Shown here: positions 25,691 to 54,945 of the stretch, piece after piece
How positions within the stretch are numbered: position 1 is the first letter of the stretch
Layout: every line of letters starts with the position of its first letter
Source: Escherichia phage Sa157lw
DNA: 64,000 nucleotides
Sequence record: OK322699.1
Direction: 5' to 3' (one strand)
The notes under the pieces: generated by a model
Databases searched by the model: none
Seen by the model: the letters and a program-made list of their open reading frames with translations, nothing else
Told to the model about the DNA's origin: nothing
Position numbers and translations under genes: made by a program

Positions 25691-25774
25691 TGGAGCGGGA
25701 GAACAGGATTCGAACCTGTCCAGTGATCGTCGCCGATGATCAGTCGGCTACTGGCCAACCCCTATGGCTCCCGC
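25691..25774 (-). tRNA. tRNA-like element with GAU anticodon-like loop (possible Ile), non-canonical D region, CCA encoded
   Basis: Perfect acceptor gcgggag/ctcccgc, T-arm acagg-ttcgaat-cctgt, hairpin gccga-cuGAUca-tcggc; extra nucleotide before the 3' acceptor strand and no clean D-arm. Confidence 0.4.
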
Positions 25775-26644: not shown

Positions 26645-26720
26645 TGGTGACCCTGGCTGGACTTGAACCAGCGACCAATCGATTATGAGTCGACTGCTCT
26701 AACCACTGAGCTACGGGGCC
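26645..26720 (-). tRNA. tRNA-Met (CAU; elongator-type or lysidine Ile2), CCA encoded
   Basis: Hand fold: acceptor ggccccg/cagggtc (one C-A mismatch), D-arm gctc-agtggtta-gagc, anticodon arm gtcga-cuCAUaa-tcgat, T-arm gctgg-ttcaagt-ccagc. Confidence 0.75.
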
Positions 26721-26828
26721 AAAATTGGCGGGGTCTGAGGCTTTTCACCTCACCTGCTGGATTGGCCTCCAGCTGTTCTCTCTGGGGACTCGCTGTCCGG
26801 ACAGCTATCCCTTAAACTATCGCCCCTT

Positions 26829-26943
26829 AATTCATATTGCTGTGGGTAATACCAAAGCGGAGGTTTGGAATCTCTCGCCCTATAGCGACCTTTAAACCGT
26901 TTGATCAGTCCGATCCAAAGGACTACCCACAGCAATATGAATT
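26829..26943. repeat. perfect 20-bp inverted repeat (26829-26848 / 26924-26943) around a 75-nt spacer
   Basis: aattcatattgctgtgggta is the exact reverse complement of tacccacagcaatatgaatt. Confidence 0.9.
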
Positions 26944-27150
26944 TGTTGTGTCCAATCAAGGACTGTCAACCTTTTATCCCGTTTGTGCATGATCAGTTCA
27001 TGCAGGCCTCTTTGTGCGCCTCACAGCAACGCGCTTCTGTAGGTCATTGACTTGCACCGTAGTCTCACCACAGGCGTTTATTTTTCCAGGGCTTTCCACT
27101 TACAAGTCTTAACCAGATCGGGATACGGGCTTGTAAGATCAGATTGGACA

Positions 27151-27228
27151 CAACTTTGATGGCTCTAGGACTAAAGATCCCGCGTCACCCATAGACTTGG
27201 TTTATAAAATCTAGAGCCATCAAAGTTG
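27151..27228. repeat. perfect 18-bp inverted repeat (27151-27168 / 27211-27228) around a 42-nt spacer
   Basis: caactttgatggctctag vs ctagagccatcaaagttg. Confidence 0.9.
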
Positions 27229-27608
27229 CAACCAATGTCGCAACTCGCACTTCAGCGTCTTCGTCTCGCTTCAGCACTTGTCCTCTACGCTCGGACCAAA
27301 CGAGGCTGGCCGACAGAAACATGACACCACTCATCACTAGAGCGAGGATGTGGTTGATAGCCACGATGTTACATCTCTGTCGCAGAGTGATCACACTTGT
27401 CAGGATGATCACTGTTTTGCGAACTTGAAAATACTGCGCCTGTCTCGGGTTTCCCCTTAGTTCGGCCTCTCATTGTTCGTCTAGTCAGGGAGCTACCCTT
27501 GATGACCAGCTTATTTTGAGATCTTCGCCAGCACCCACTAGTGTCTAGAATATGTAGGTGTCGAGGTCTGCAAGGCATTGCCCTATTTCATACAACGCTC
27601 TCTCAAGT

Positions 27609-27744
27609 ACGCAAATCGAAGTTCTCTGGGCTTAACAGGTTCGACCCAACATGTTGTATATCGCCTAACTTGCTCATGGGACGGACACATCTGTGTACAG
27701 ACCTTGAGGGTTAAAAGATATACCCAAAGAACTTCGATTTGCGT
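27609..27744. repeat. perfect 17-bp inverted repeat (27609-27625 / 27728-27744) around a 102-nt spacer
   Basis: acgcaaatcgaagttct vs agaacttcgatttgcgt. Confidence 0.85.
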
Positions 27745-27889: not shown

Positions 27890-28022
27890 CACATCTTTGA
27901 GGGCACTCAGTGTACAACAGGCTCCGATATTTCATAGGGCATTACTGCCTCGGATTTAAGTTGCCTTTCTCCTGAAACTCCATGCAGTCTCGCGTCTGAC
28001 GCGGAATGCCCTCAAAGATGTG
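27890..28022. repeat. perfect 16-bp inverted repeat (27890-27905 / 28007-28022) around a 101-nt spacer
   Basis: cacatctttgagggca vs tgccctcaaagatgtg; right arm ends at the tgg of the adjacent tRNA-like 3' module. Confidence 0.85.
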
Positions 28023-28146
28023 GAGCCGTTTTAGGGAGTCGAACCCAAATGCTTGGCCAGCGCTGACCTTACATCCCATCTGACTTAGGCAACCCACCTC
28101 TGCTTACTCAGGAGCTTATCCCCTTTGGACAGTCAGATATAACGGC
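28021..28146 (-). ncRNA. tRNA-like 3' module (CCA, acceptor, T-arm) whose only matching 5' acceptor strand is ~120 nt away
   Basis: tgg-a-gccgttt-taggg-agtcgaa-cccaa at 28021-28048; complementary aacggc only at 28141-28146. Confidence 0.25.
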
Positions 28147-28148
28147 TT

Positions 28149-28217
28149 TGGGATTGGAGGAAGGACTCGAACCTTCTCATGTACGCTCCTGATTTCTCAG
28201 AAGTAGCCTGCTCCCAT
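28149..28217 (-). tRNA. short tRNA-like element (about 69 nt with CCA), anticodon arm atypical
   Basis: CCA-discriminator-acceptor attggag, T-arm gaagg-actcgaa-ccttc, 5' strand atgggag (one mismatch); central ctga-gaaa-tcag hairpin has a 4-nt loop. Confidence 0.3.
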
Positions 28218-28434
28218 CGACCTATTAAGTACACGCTCCGCTCATTGTTCGGCGGGAGCTTATTAATCACACCCTCCCGCCTATTGTTAGTGCGCCGAAT
28301 TTTGTTATGAGGAATCGGAAGACCTCACTGGTGTATGGCTATTAAGCTACTGCCAGGAACGTGTTATCATTAGCGATTATTTTTGTGGTCAGTTTCTAAA
28401 AACCCGCAAAGTCACGCACAACGAAAACGAAAAC

Positions 28435-28499
28435 CTGTTTGAGTCCTAAACCTACCTGTCTTGGTCTCACATCGCTATGAGTGGCCAGGACTCAAACAG
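28435..28499. repeat. perfect 13-bp inverted repeat (28435-28447 / 28487-28499) around a 39-nt spacer
   Basis: ctgtttgagtcct vs aggactcaaacag. Confidence 0.8.
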
Positions 28500-29289
28500 C
28501 TTGCCGTTCAGTGAGTTAACTATACTTTGTAACCCGTTATTGATAAAACCTTTTATTTTTGTTGACGAGGGTGTGGAATCGAACCACACTTCTGAGCGCT
28601 GCCCCGTGTCACCAATGCACCACCTCACCATCGATTTGCCGGAACTTACGCATCCGGCCTCGCCTGTTGGTGATCCTTCGAATCCGGGAAGATTAGTAGG
28701 AACTATGAATCAAGTTAATTCGACCAACAGGAATCCTCGTGTTGCCCTTTGACGCAACATTATGAACCCTCTATGAAGACTCATAATGTTGTCGGCGTGA
28801 TGGAGATTAGCGCCCCCGACCTCCCCTTATATGTTGGTGTCGACTTGCCAACGGGGTGCTCTCATTCTTCTGAGCTAATCACGCTACAACAGGGAGTTTC
28901 GTTCTCCGACGGTCAAGTGCGTCCACTGACACCAGCGAGGTGGATGTGACGCCTCTATTCACACAAGCCCCAGAGACTAGGGGTTCACTGTTTTCGGTTT
29001 CAAGCCTACTCACACTGTGCTGTTTCCCTCATGTTTGATACTTTACTGCAAGCCAGCCAATTTGAAAAATCCTCTCCCCTTTGAATTACACTGCCCACAG
29101 CAGTGCGGACGAACCTTCATTCAAAACCGGATGCGCCGAAATGGGCGACTGTGTACCGGACTGATCAGGTCGACCCAGGAGAGAGCAGGTAATCCCGATC
29201 AGGAGGATGAGGAGTAACATCATGTAAAACATAGTGTTCCCTCCCTTCCATGCAACTAACTTTACCGCATTTATTTATTGAATAAAGCG

Positions 29290-52754: not shown

Positions 52755-54945
52755 TATAGAATATGCTCCGATAAAAACGGGGTTTAAAATCGACGACGTG
52801 AAATTGCGTATGGACCAGACGTTCATGCGCAAGCCTTCTGTGCGCGCTCCACGAGTCGAGTTGATGCTAACAGATGAACAAGAAGACGAATTTGTTGAAT
52901 GTTCAATGGACGCGCATTACTTCGCTGCCAATTACTACAAGATAACGACAATCGATAAAGGCTTCATCCTTTTCGATATGCATGATTATCAGAAACAATT
53001 ATTTCACGATTTTCAAGATTATCGTTTCAATGCCGTTGTCCAGGCGCGTCAGTCCGGTAAATGCGTCCGTGGTGATACTCTTGTTTATGTCTATGATACA
53101 GTCAGTCAACAAGAGTTGCATCTCACCATAGAAGAGCTTCACAAGCGCTTCGAAGGACCGAACCATGCTGTGCCACTGAATACCATTGGCAACCACAATA
53201 AGTTTGTAGACAGCCGTTTCGGGAAACGATATTTTGTTGAGTCCGACACTGGCTGGGTTCCGGTTATTGCCGCTCATAAAACGAAAGAATACGCTGAATA
53301 CGTGGTCAGGACTGAAACCGGACGCACAATTCATGTCGCAGATGAGCACATGTTCTTCAATGAATATGGGCGCGAAGTATTTGCTAAAGACATGGAGGCC
53401 GGAGATGCCATAATGACCCAGGAGGGAATAGAATTCATCTCTGAGATCTGGGAGACTGGTGAGTACCACCACATGTATGACTTGCAAGTCAAGTCCAGCG
53501 ATCAACGTTATTACACGAATGGGTTCCTCAGCCATAATACCACGGTCGTGGCTGCGTTTCTTCTTTGGTATGCGATGTTCCACTCAGACAAAGAAATCGC
53601 GGTACTGGCAAACAAAGAGAAACAAGCGATTGAAATTCTTGACCGTATCAGGAAGGCGTATCAGGACCTCCCATTCTTCCTTCAGCAGGGTTGTGAGAAG
53701 TTTGGTTCTACACTGATAGAGTTTGAGAACGGCTCTAAGATATATGCTTATGCAACGTCTTCGGACTCTATTCGTGGTCGTTCTGTATCTCTCTTGTACG
53801 TGGACGAAGTCGCATTCATCGAAAATGACTTTGAATTTTGGGAATCAACATTCCCAGCGATCGCATCTGCTGATACTTCACGTTGTATTCTGACCAGTAC
53901 TCCGAAAGGCCAGCGAGGGTTGTTCTATGATATCGTCACCAAAGCAGACCCGCGCCATCCGCAATACAACGACTTCCATCTTACCGAAGTCCCTTGGTAC
54001 AAGGTTCCGGCGTACACCAAAGACCCTGATTGGGAAACCAAACAACGCGCTCGTCTGGGGGATGCCCGTTTTGACCAGGAATTTGGAATCAAGTTCCGTG
54101 GTTCTGTAGGTTCATTGATACCAGCCAAATGCTTGGATAAAATGACATCCAAGTTATATCGAGAGCCTAATGAGTTCACCAAAATTTACAAGGAATATGA
54201 CCCGCAACGCATCTACTTCGGGATCGCAGATACGGGGAAAGGTGTTGAAGGAGATTATTCGGTTCTGACAATTCTGGATATAACGGAATACCCGCATGTC
54301 ATAGCGGCCAAGTACAGGAACAATACAATACCTCCGATGATGTATGCATACACGATAGCTGATATGTGTACTGAATACGGGGAATGCCCTGTCCTTGTCG
54401 AGACGAATAACGACGTTGGTGGACAGGTTATCACGATCTTGTATCAAGAAATTGAGTATCCAGAGATCATATTCACGTCGACGGATAACAAAGGGACAGG
54501 GAAACGGATTGGTGGTCGTAAACCAGAGCCAGGCATTAACACCAACAGGAAAGTGCGATCTATTGGTTGTGCTAACCTGAAAGCGCTTATTGAGAAAGAA
54601 ATGTTGGTGATTGAAGATCAAGACACGATAGATGAACTCAGCACATTCGTGTTCCGTGGTGCGCGTTATGAAGCAGATGATGGATGTCACGACGACTGCG
54701 TTATGCCGTTGGTATTATATTCTTGGGCAGTTAAACAAGAATGGTTCAGTGATCTGACTTCTACCAGTATTTCTCAAGACATGAGAAATAGAATGTCTTC
54801 GACTGAGTCACAACAAGTATTCCCATTTGGTGGTTTAGTCGTGGGAGACACTCCATCTGGAACTGAGCATCTCCCTGGGTTCGGTGGTGTTCAAGTCTTC
54901 GACGAACGTTCAGGGATGACAATGGACGAGTGGTTTAAGAATTGA
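52735..54945 (+). CDS. terminase large subunit (T4 gp17-like), interrupted by a mini-intein
   Basis: Walker A reads ARQSGK|C...HN|TTVVAAFLLWYAMFH; without the insert it becomes ARQSGKTTVVA, matching T4 gp17 SRQLGKTTVVA. Confidence 0.9.
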   Translation: MAYQKRDIEYAPIKTGFKIDDVKLRMDQTFMRKPSVRAPRVELMLTDEQEDEFVECSMDAHYFAANYYKITTIDKGFILFDMHDYQKQLFHDFQDYRFNAVVQARQSGKCVRGDTLVYVYDTVSQQELHLTIEELHKRFEGPNHAVPLNTIGNHNKFVDSRFGKRYFVESDTGWVPVIAAHKTKEYAEYVVRTETGRTIHVADEHMFFNEYGREVFAKDMEAGDAIMTQEGIEFISEIWETGEYHHMYDLQVKSSDQRYYTNGFLSHNTTVVAAFLLWYAMFHSDKEIAVLANKEKQAIEILDRIRKAYQDLPFFLQQGCEKFGSTLIEFENGSKIYAYATSSDSIRGRSVSLLYVDEVAFIENDFEFWESTFPAIASADTSRCILTSTPKGQRGLFYDIVTKADPRHPQYNDFHLTEVPWYKVPAYTKDPDWETKQRARLGDARFDQEFGIKFRGSVGSLIPAKCLDKMTSKLYREPNEFTKIYKEYDPQRIYFGIADTGKGVEGDYSVLTILDITEYPHVIAAKYRNNTIPPMMYAYTIADMCTEYGECPVLVETNNDVGGQVITILYQEIEYPEIIFTSTDNKGTGKRIGGRKPEPGINTNRKVRSIGCANLKALIEKEMLVIEDQDTIDELSTFVFRGARYEADDGCHDDCVMPLVLYSWAVKQEWFSDLTSTSISQDMRNRMSSTESQQVFPFGGLVVGDTPSGTEHLPGFGGVQVFDERSGMTMDEWFKN
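53062..53538 (+). mobile_element. mini-intein (159 aa, no homing endonuclease domain) in the terminase P-loop
   Basis: Begins Cys (CVRGDTLVYV), block-B-like GRTIHVADEH, ends ...FLSHN with +1 Thr; length multiple of 3. Confidence 0.8.

Follow-up and report, generated by a model that had tools for sequence, protein, structure and literature searches.

A stem-closed candidate RNA gene beside the tRNA cluster of a Kuttervirus

The repeat-bounded unit E1 and its surroundings

We analyzed a stretch of 64,000 nucleotides (nt) of Escherichia phage Sa157lw (record OK322699.1), referred to below as the window, which represents a Vi01/ECML-4-type Kuttervirus (Ackermannviridae). The subject of the analysis is E1, a complete stem-closed RNA module of 115 nt on the minus strand (26829..26943), recognized by its inverted repeat, its predicted fold, and a covariance model. 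The arms of the repeat, AATTCATATTGCTGTGGGTA at 26829-26848 and its counterpart at 26924-26943, are 20 nt long, 100% complementary to each other, and separated by a gap of 75 nt. About 1.7e-5 perfect 20-bp inverted repeats with arms within 300 nt of each other are expected per 64 kb of random sequence. Elsewhere in the window the arm has a single match, with three mismatches and at chance level. The segment 26815-26960 is identical in Salmonella phage Vi01, Escherichia phage ECML-4, and Salmonella phage STML-13-1.

E1 is located on the 5' side, in the sense of the minus strand, of a cluster of minus-strand transfer RNA (tRNA) genes for Met, Asn, Ile, and Ser (26720-25598). All four were called by ARAGORN, and three of the calls are backed by Rfam, the tRNA-Ile call being the one without such support. 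The next gene in the 3' direction from E1 is tRNA-Met(CAU) on the same strand (26645..26720), with an Rfam score of 68.4 bits. E1 itself is part of a region of approximately 2.5 kb (26721 to about 29200) that holds only short, mutually overlapping open reading frames (ORFs), none of them convincing. In GenBank, E1 is either unannotated or covered by inconsistent 'hypothetical proteins' (GEC_vB_N6, Menlow, FKP14, and others). The record of phage bering labels the left arm of E1 a 'repeat_region', and a terminal-repeat or packaging role prompted by this label was rejected, since the feature is merely that arm.

No tRNA was called by ARAGORN at 26829-26943, and the Rfam tRNA model has no match there even at E<=10; the same two programs rule out an intron-bearing tRNA. 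Moreover, no Rfam family is found at E1 either at gathering thresholds (window) or at E<=10 (26700-27300). An earlier interpretation made from the letters alone (the sequence-only reading) had described a perfect 20-bp inverted repeat around a 75-nt spacer without a cloverleaf. Both statements hold: the repeat was recovered by a repeat search and by direct reading, and the predicted fold is a three-way junction with two hairpins.

Fold, covariation, and strand of E1

Eight distinct variants of E1, all of 115 nt, were aligned without gaps: four from Kuttervirus and four from Klebsiella and Escherichia Taipeivirus, at approximately 84% identity. The fold and the loop sequences are conserved between the two genera, and the changes in the stems fit only a minus-strand RNA. 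The consensus structure consists of a closing helix of 22 bp, formed by both ends of the unit, and hairpins A and B, which meet at a three-way junction with a 2-nt linker between them. As minus-strand RNA, the 20-bp repeat is thus extended by a G.U and a U-A pair. The 5' strand of the closing helix, AAUUCAUAUUGCUGUGGGUAGU (columns 1-22, positions 26922..26943), and its 3' strand (columns 94-115, positions 26829..26850) form 22 standard pairs in all eight variants. Three of these pairs are altered on both sides, for example by a change of CU/AG to UC/GA, and three on one side via G.U.

Hairpin A (26889..26921, minus strand) has an 11-bp stem, columns 23-33 pairing with columns 45-55 in 95.5% of cells, and an 11-nt loop. 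It holds G.U pairs that become A.C on the plus strand. The loop sequence, GACUGAUCAAA (26900..26910), is identical in seven of the eight variants, across both genera. Hairpin B (columns 58-93; 26851..26886, minus strand) is made of 4 bp, a UA internal loop, 5 bp, a bulged A, 3 bp, and the 9-nt loop AUUCCAAAC (26863-26871), and 100% of its cells are paired. Between the genera its stem changes from GCG/CGC to ACA/UGU, which amounts to two double compensatory changes. The minimum free energy (MFE) of E1 is -52.3 kcal/mol for the minus-strand RNA vs -46.4 kcal/mol for the plus strand, with z about -7.5 against shuffled sequences. Folding of both strands and a homology search for arms and spacer had been proposed together with the sequence-only reading. 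The former favors the minus strand, and the latter recovers relatives in Kuttervirus and Taipeivirus that keep the fold; arms that fail to pair, which would have spoken against that reading, were seen in none of the eight variants.

Standard pairs occupy 356 of the 360 pair cells of the alignment (98.9%), whereas shifting the partners by 1-3 columns lowers this share to 38-48%. Six pairs of E1 are altered on both sides, and the observed covariation score was matched by 0 of 500 shuffles, a control that overstates significance for related sequences. These counts bear on the idea that E1 is a decaying tRNA pseudogene, or another nonfunctional remnant that has retained a palindrome. The island beside the tRNA genes does contain degenerate tRNA-like pieces that neither ARAGORN nor Rfam calls, and E1 is dispensable, both of which would suit a remnant. 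However, pair-breaking changes would then be expected, yet nearly all cells pair, every one-sided change is to G.U, and the loops are near-invariant at 84% overall identity; we consider a remnant scarcely credible.

The strand of the RNA is indicated by the nonstandard pairs. In the minus-strand sense the eight variants contain 66 G.U cells and 0 A.C cells, and for this reason the helices of E1 are only 80.6% paired when read on the plus strand. Counted by columns, there are 14 with a non-Watson-Crick pair, and in each of them the minus strand shows G.U (p about 6e-5 if the strands were equivalent). Similarly, the covariance model of E1 scores 131 bits on the minus strand vs 38 on the plus strand and finds a single copy in the window. 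The strand test by G.U and A.C pairs is the strongest result for a minus-strand RNA. In addition, the arms of the Taipeivirus E1 carry three G.U pairs, so that pairing is not maintained by copying of one arm onto the other at the DNA level.

The Vi01-type and Menlow variants differ at 19 positions, of which 18 fall among the 90 paired positions and one among the 25 unpaired ones (Fisher p=0.045); 17 of the differences are transitions, and codon periodicity is absent (8/6/5). Since the differences concentrate in pairs, the loops are near-invariant, and there is no codon periodicity, the stems drift under a pairing constraint, the loops are held, and the sequence is noncoding. A small protein encoded here would agree with the 'hypothetical protein' features noted above and with one plus-strand frame that is free of stops through all 115 nt in every variant. 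Nevertheless, the clustering of substitutions in pairs and the lack of periodicity are not those of a coding region, and the annotated ORFs vary in strand and extent from record to record and extend into flanks that are not homologous between the genera. The probability of a protein-coding function is next to negligible.

A short complementarity to E1 was observed outside it. The 11-nt segment UGAUCAGUCCG (29157-29167), read on the minus-strand transcript and located within a 48-codon ORF, is perfectly complementary to loop A together with its closing pairs. The match, part of which is a palindrome, is located upstream of the predicted promoter, and by chance about 0.03 matches of this kind would be expected.

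Distribution of E1 and the other modules of the island

E1 was found in 64 of 366 related phage records, namely in a minority of Kutterviruses and in 38 Taipeivirus-type records, always as one copy per genome and always beside tRNA-Met. The Taipeivirus match spans window positions 26827-26941, nearly exactly the repeat-bounded unit, and ends 8 nt before tRNA-Met, compared with a distance of 108 nt in the window. A search for distant E1 sequences among 50,697 phage records gave matches only in Ackermannviridae, and the covariance model detected no divergent E1 in the Agtrevirus, Limestonevirus, or Miltonvirus loci. No E1 was found in 5,426 E. coli genomes, 72,556 plasmids, or a metagenome collection; in viral contigs, pattern scans anchored on the loops recovered no isolates other than those already known to carry it, and in metagenomes they had no match. 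Three matches in bacterial genomes and one further locus (L013) were rejected, as they share only a 19-nt loop word, occur in about the number expected by chance, and score 10-15 bits with the model.

Several related phages lack E1 in part or in full. In SFP10 and S117 the E1-empty site is precise and retains a single AATT. This tetranucleotide is present at both ends of E1, where it is palindromic and part of the stem; in Taipeivirus the right end reads AACT instead. In CBA120, SS9, Mutine, and their relatives, a gene for an HNH homing endonuclease stands in place of the S module (the spacer that separates E1 from tRNA-Met), the 3' clamp strand of E1, and its interior (equivalent to window 26721-26921; loci L003 and L006 of CBA120), and the 5' clamp strand is the sole remnant of E1. 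About 10 nt at the 5' end of tRNA-Met are shared with the CBA120-type HNH gene, whose start codon follows the surviving E1 arm after about 5 nt. Finally, Phi_10 contains a 55-bp tandem duplication of the flank and the left arm of E1 (L030:1446-1500), which accounts for an apparent second location of E1 in that phage. One junction of the duplication is at the top of the E1 arm and the other inside a neighboring small palindrome, consistent with hairpin-provoked template switching.

This pattern could be expected of a selfish DNA palindrome, and the sequence-only reading had offered a miniature palindromic element as one possibility. E1 would then be a miniature inverted-repeat transposable element (MITE) or a similar unit, with the arms as terminal inverted repeats and AATT as a target-site duplication. 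The perfect terminal repeats that bound a 115-bp unit, its behavior as an exact unit, either present or missing with one AATT left at the empty site, its patchy occurrence, and the flanks that differ between the two genera all fit such an element. On the other hand, E1 occurs once per genome in the same slot, with no dispersed copies in E. coli genomes, plasmids, or metagenomes, and no cognate transposase is annotated in phage bering, an E1 carrier whose annotation was read over approximately 154 of its 156 kb. In Taipeivirus, AACT takes the place of AATT at the right end, and hairpin-stimulated deletion, by slippage between the two AATTs, explains the empty site equally well as transposition. 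Transposase-binding repeats would not be expected to show a strand-specific G.U bias or covarying internal hairpins. A transposable palindrome is therefore highly unlikely, and this part of the sequence-only reading is not supported. Over the same approximately 154 kb, the annotation of bering likewise contains no integrase, no reverse transcriptase, no TROVE protein, and neither an RNase III nor an RNA ligase; entries that it does contain are GIY-YIG and homing endonucleases, nucleases of the SbcCD-like and RuvC-like types, and a RegB-like protein. A retron noncoding RNA was also rejected: E1 does have inverted repeats, but the portion of the bering annotation that was read contains no reverse transcriptase, and only short ORFs surround E1.

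E1 has several sister modules. A scan of the window detected five long inverted repeats, all at 26.8-28.5 kb, the only other match being a palindrome with overlapping arms at 54328-54365. E2-E5, all on the minus strand, have arms of 22-26 nt and interiors of 39-92 nt. E2 (27143..27236) has 26-nt arms around 42 nt and a ratio of G.U to A.C of 7:2; E3 (27609..27744) has 22-nt arms around 92 nt, and E4 (27890..28022) 24-nt arms around 85 nt, each with a ratio of 26:6. E5 (28426..28508; ratio 15:1) is a stem-closed module at the predicted 5' end of the transcript, with an MFE of -38.0 on the minus strand vs -28.2 on the plus strand. Each of E1-E5 is more stable as a minus-strand RNA, and their stems are kept in other genera via compensatory changes; in E3 this is the case at 69% overall identity. 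The arms of E2 and E4 have in common a sequence of the type CA(A/T)CTTTGA(T/G)GG. For E1, E3, E4, and E5, homology between genera ends at the stem ends.

Two further modules adjoin E1 on either side. The M module, an inverted repeat (I3) of 210 nt (26945..27154, minus strand), has a perfect 13-bp closing stem that overlaps an arm of E2 and shows one compensatory change across phages, from CCAATC/GATTGG to CCAACC/GGTTGG. The S module (26721..26828, minus strand), recognized by conservation, is a structured spacer of 108 nt that ends in ...CCCCGCCA. It is 96% identical in the Taipeiviruses KWBSE43-6 and P01, yet is located there on the other side of tRNA-Met, and in SFP10 its central hairpin GCTGTCCGGACAGC is swapped for GATGCGCGCGCATC. 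A segment at 27415-27627, which corresponds to Taipeivirus L004:2972-3188 (24-nt arms, 169-nt interior), is probably a sixth clamped module. One of its arms overlaps an arm of E3 by about 7 nt, so that these neighbors would be interlocked like M and E2.

Agtrevirus, Taipeivirus, and Miltonvirus have their own sets of clamped modules in the same island, and the Limestonevirus locus contains only shorter and weaker repeats. In the Taipeivirus island, STnc100 (Rfam RF02076) was detected with 53-54 bits vs a threshold of 47 (L011:2400-2614 and L004:2590-2804), in a slot that corresponds to window positions around 27250-27276, where the window has a deletion. The presence of a curated small RNA (sRNA) in a slot of the island indicates that the island carries sRNA genes. 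STnc100 was rejected as the identity of E1, being a different module in a different slot and absent from the window.

The E4 slot displays what the closing stems, or clamps, may hold. At least four allelic states are found in it, with similar stems (CACATCT...AGATGTG): the 85-nt cargo of the window (27890-28022); a 51-nt cargo with a canonical T-arm in SeKF_19 (L022:1874-1962); a mini-cloverleaf of four hairpins with the T-loop TTCGAAT behind a 19-bp stem in KWBSE43-6 (L010:3172-3292); and a bare tetraloop hairpin in P01 and CECAV_050 (L011 and L023:1674-1715). None of these cargoes is called a tRNA by ARAGORN or Rfam. A tRNA in a clamp is provided by the unrelated Felixounavirus Escherichia phage VpaE1, in which a 14-bp flanking stem (L035:1016-1131) encloses a tRNA-Ser(UGA) (1028-1117) that was called by ARAGORN and is unannotated in the record. 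Two more clamped modules of VpaE1 (L035:1920-2063 and 779-856) lie 3 and 6 nt from tRNA genes (tRNA-Lys and tRNA-Leu). All four mismatches in the VpaE1 clamp arms are G.U on the tRNA strand.

The main rival to an RNA gene is a cis-acting processing or insulating hairpin. In that case E1 would act purely within the tRNA precursor, as an RNase III site, a folding insulator, or a nuclease barrier, and its interior would be functionless. A perfect 22-bp helix does adjoin the tRNA, the E4 slot combines the same stems with varied cargo or with none, which suggests that the stem is the constant part, and E5 stands next to the predicted start of the transcript, a position in which a hairpin would guard against decay. 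This rival is weakened because the loops are conserved, more so than the stems (1 of 25 vs 18 of 90 positions altered), and both internal hairpins are held by compensatory changes that are unexpected if only the outer helix mattered. We regard an exclusively cis-acting E1 as rather unlikely.

The same modules might also act as folded DNA, either as a cruciform or hairpin recombination site similar to an integron attC or as part of a replication origin near the strand switch. Homology breakpoints at the stem ends, the exchange of cargo within similar stems, and the duplication junctions of Phi_10 at hairpin tops would be natural for such sites. The cumulative GC skew reaches its minimum at 28-30 kb, the phage encodes SbcCD-like and RuvC-like nucleases as well as homing endonucleases, and a hairpin of single-stranded DNA with the minus sequence would give the same bias as G.T. 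However, gene orientation switches at the skew minimum, the annotation of bering has no entry for an integrase or recombinase, and a recombination site needs neither conserved loops nor a branched interior. Co-orientation with the tRNA genes, adjacency to them, and a real tRNA in such a stem suit RNA better, which leaves folded DNA quite improbable.

A consensus scan identified a sigma-70-type promoter-like site at 28519..28546 on the minus strand, in which TTATCA and TATAGT are 16 nt apart and an A-rich tract lies upstream; the start predicted from it is a few bases before E5. The site is kept in Kuttervirus, Taipeivirus, Agtrevirus, and Miltonvirus while its flanks diverge: across these genera the -35 element is TT(A/G)TCA, the spacer is 16-17 nt, and GTATAGTTAAC is invariant.

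Other conserved or tRNA-like segments were noted in the island and in the tRNA cluster. A 128-nt block directly beside E4 (28023-28150) is 95-100% identical in Kuttervirus, Taipeivirus, and Agtrevirus and is more conserved than the tRNA genes. On the minus strand it contains a T-arm-like sequence, GGGTTCGACTCCC, and a 7-bp closing stem, and its folding energy is -43.5 kcal/mol vs -30.7 kcal/mol on the plus strand; it has no Rfam match. Hundreds of unrelated phages, among them Felixounavirus and T1-like siphoviruses, contain counterparts of the segment 28289-28428 (about 100-140 nt) at 74-81% identity; in VpaE1 the counterpart likewise lies within the tRNA cluster and in the same orientation. 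The segment gives only weak Rfam matches resembling transfer-messenger RNA (tmRNA), and its fold is not significant (z -0.2 and -1.2). Around 28565-28640 on the minus strand, a tRNA-like sequence with a good T-arm, GTGTGGTTCGATTCCACAC, a 7-bp acceptor-like stem, and a defective anticodon arm is followed by an A/T-rich tract; it is called by neither ARAGORN nor Rfam. Among the tRNA genes proper, the 84-nt tRNA-Ile(GAU) called by ARAGORN (25691-25774) scores below the threshold of the Rfam tRNA model and is placed on the opposite strand in one GenBank record; it may be a degenerate or unusual tRNA. An assignment of E1 to a known RNA family was rejected, the nearby Rfam matches being only spurious ones of microRNA precursors to the E2 hairpin and, elsewhere, weak tmRNA-like fragments.

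Proposed expression of E1 and comparison with known systems

The favored interpretation is that E1 is a minus-strand gene for a small structured RNA, clamped by its leader and trailer and cotranscribed with the tRNA genes; we estimate its probability at about 0.6. According to this model, one long precursor would start at the promoter-like site (about 28510) and run through E5, E4, E3, E2, M, E1, and S into the tRNAs, and each module in it would close on itself via a leader-trailer clamp. The 3' side of E1 would be set by RNase P as it cleaves at the 5' end of tRNA-Met, and a cut by RNase III in the 22-bp clamp would free E1 as a discrete stable RNA. The enzyme proposed for the latter step is that of the host, because no phage RNase III is annotated. 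RNase III acts on an uninterrupted helix of about two turns, at least 20 bp, and in every variant the clamp of E1 comprises 22 standard pairs in succession. The near-invariant loops, especially GACUGAUCAAA, could offer a surface for a binding protein or an RNA partner.

The clamp is common to a real tRNA in Felixounavirus and to the tRNA-like or empty cargo of the E4 slot. By this analogy, E1 most probably represents a cassette from a tRNA slot in which the cargo has evolved into a new accessory RNA; this cargo has ceased to resemble a tRNA, yet its fold and its loop sequences are both under selection. As for the suggestion of the sequence-only reading that the repeat flanks a processed structured RNA, its structured part is upheld by the fold kept in two genera, the compensatory changes, the bias to G.U over A.C, and the similar stems that enclose tRNA-Ser or tRNA-like cargo; the processing of the E1 RNA is plausible on the model outlined above.

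Several points weigh against this interpretation. Both proposed cuts follow from the geometry of the locus and from known enzyme requirements. The promoter-like site, although conserved, is a consensus match about 1.6 kb upstream of E1; in the consensus scan such sites are no commoner than expected by chance, and a weak terminator-like site (27345-27327) lies between it and E1. The literature yielded no usable transcriptome or sRNA data for Kuttervirus or Ackermannviridae. With regard to a tRNA origin of the cargo, the Rfam tRNA models have no match even at E<=10. E1 is dispensable for growth, since it is missing in most Kutterviruses, its site is empty in SFP10 and S117, and it is half-deleted in CBA120. 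The effective sequence number of the covariance model is 0.62 and the comparison is essentially one of two lineages, so that most compensatory changes stem from one deep split and the number of independent events is modest; the bias of the shuffle control acts in the same direction.

If E1 and its neighbors are expressed, Ackermannviridae carry accessory noncoding RNAs that vary among near-identical isolates. These phages are in wide therapeutic and biocontrol use against Salmonella, E. coli O157, and Klebsiella. Annotations of phage tRNA clusters commonly consist of tRNAs and 'hypothetical proteins'. Here approximately 2.5 kb beside the tRNA genes appears to be an array of conserved structured RNAs that are unnamed in databases and represented in GenBank by inconsistent small ORFs. 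The series from a real tRNA in a clamp through a mini-cloverleaf and a T-arm fragment to cargo unlike tRNA suggests a testable route from a tRNA gene to a new phage RNA. More tentatively, the modules could represent an unrecognized class of clamped RNA cassettes in the tRNA islands of virulent enterobacterial phages. In such a class the clamp would serve for processing, insulation, or exchange, and the cargo would range from working tRNAs via miniaturized cloverleaves to non-tRNA RNAs like E1. The latter might use their conserved loops to work in trans, for instance as decoys for, or regulators of, host systems that target tRNAs or survey RNA.

Among the systems compared with E1, bacterial Y RNAs (YrlA/Yrn1) are RNAs of 80-150 nt with a long stem formed by the 5' and 3' ends and a tRNA-like domain (PMC4201824). 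The 22-bp end-to-end stem of E1 resembles theirs, and some sister cassettes carry T-arms. However, the 5' stem strand of YrlA-type RNAs contains the Ro/Rsr-binding motif GNCGAAN0-1G (PMC4201824), which is lacking in the corresponding strand of E1, AAUUCAUAUUGCUGUGGGUAGU, and has only a near-miss, AAUCGAAG, in an arm of E3. E1 has neither a D arm nor a T arm, no TROVE/Rsr gene is annotated in bering, and in the tRNA-like cassettes the long stem replaces the acceptor stem, unlike in YrlA. A Y RNA identity was therefore rejected, the defining motif and the partner gene being absent. With MITEs and repetitive extragenic palindromic elements, E1 shares the short noncoding unit, the perfect inverted repeats, and the precise presence or absence; it differs from them in the single copy, the absence of host copies and of an annotated transposase, the strand-specific G.U pairs, and the conserved branched interior. 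STnc100 is comparable as a curated, prophage-borne sRNA family in the same island, but has no similarity to E1 and occupies another slot.

Closer parallels are found in the tRNA cluster of phage T4 and in ribosomal RNA (rRNA) processing. In T4, eight tRNAs and the species I and II RNAs all derive from one primary transcript of about 1.75 kb (PMC2330249). Like the latter, E1 is a small structured non-tRNA RNA among phage tRNA genes and on their strand, 8-108 nt from tRNA-Met, its strand being assigned for this comparison from the G.U bias, and in both systems a homing endonuclease gene is present in the same cluster. There is no sequence similarity between them, as judged from the E1 search of 50,697 phage records, and the perfect 22-bp terminal clamp and the array of clamped cassettes with exchangeable cargo are features of E1. 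The 16S and 23S rRNAs are flanked by RNase III stems in which leader and trailer pair around the mature RNA in a helix of at least 20 bp. The pairing of the flanks of a structured RNA is the feature shared with E1, and the tRNA-Ser of Felixounavirus in its 14-bp stem is a parallel on a small scale; the differences are that E1-type cargo measures 40-90 nt rather than kilobases and that the interior of E1 is no known stable RNA. By analogy, therefore, E1 would work most like the T4 species I and II RNAs combined with leader-trailer processing stems, and the old question of the purpose of the T4 species is revived. We regard E1 as a new, unnamed RNA family with an unusual clamp-and-cassette organization, within the known accessory stable RNAs of phage tRNA clusters.

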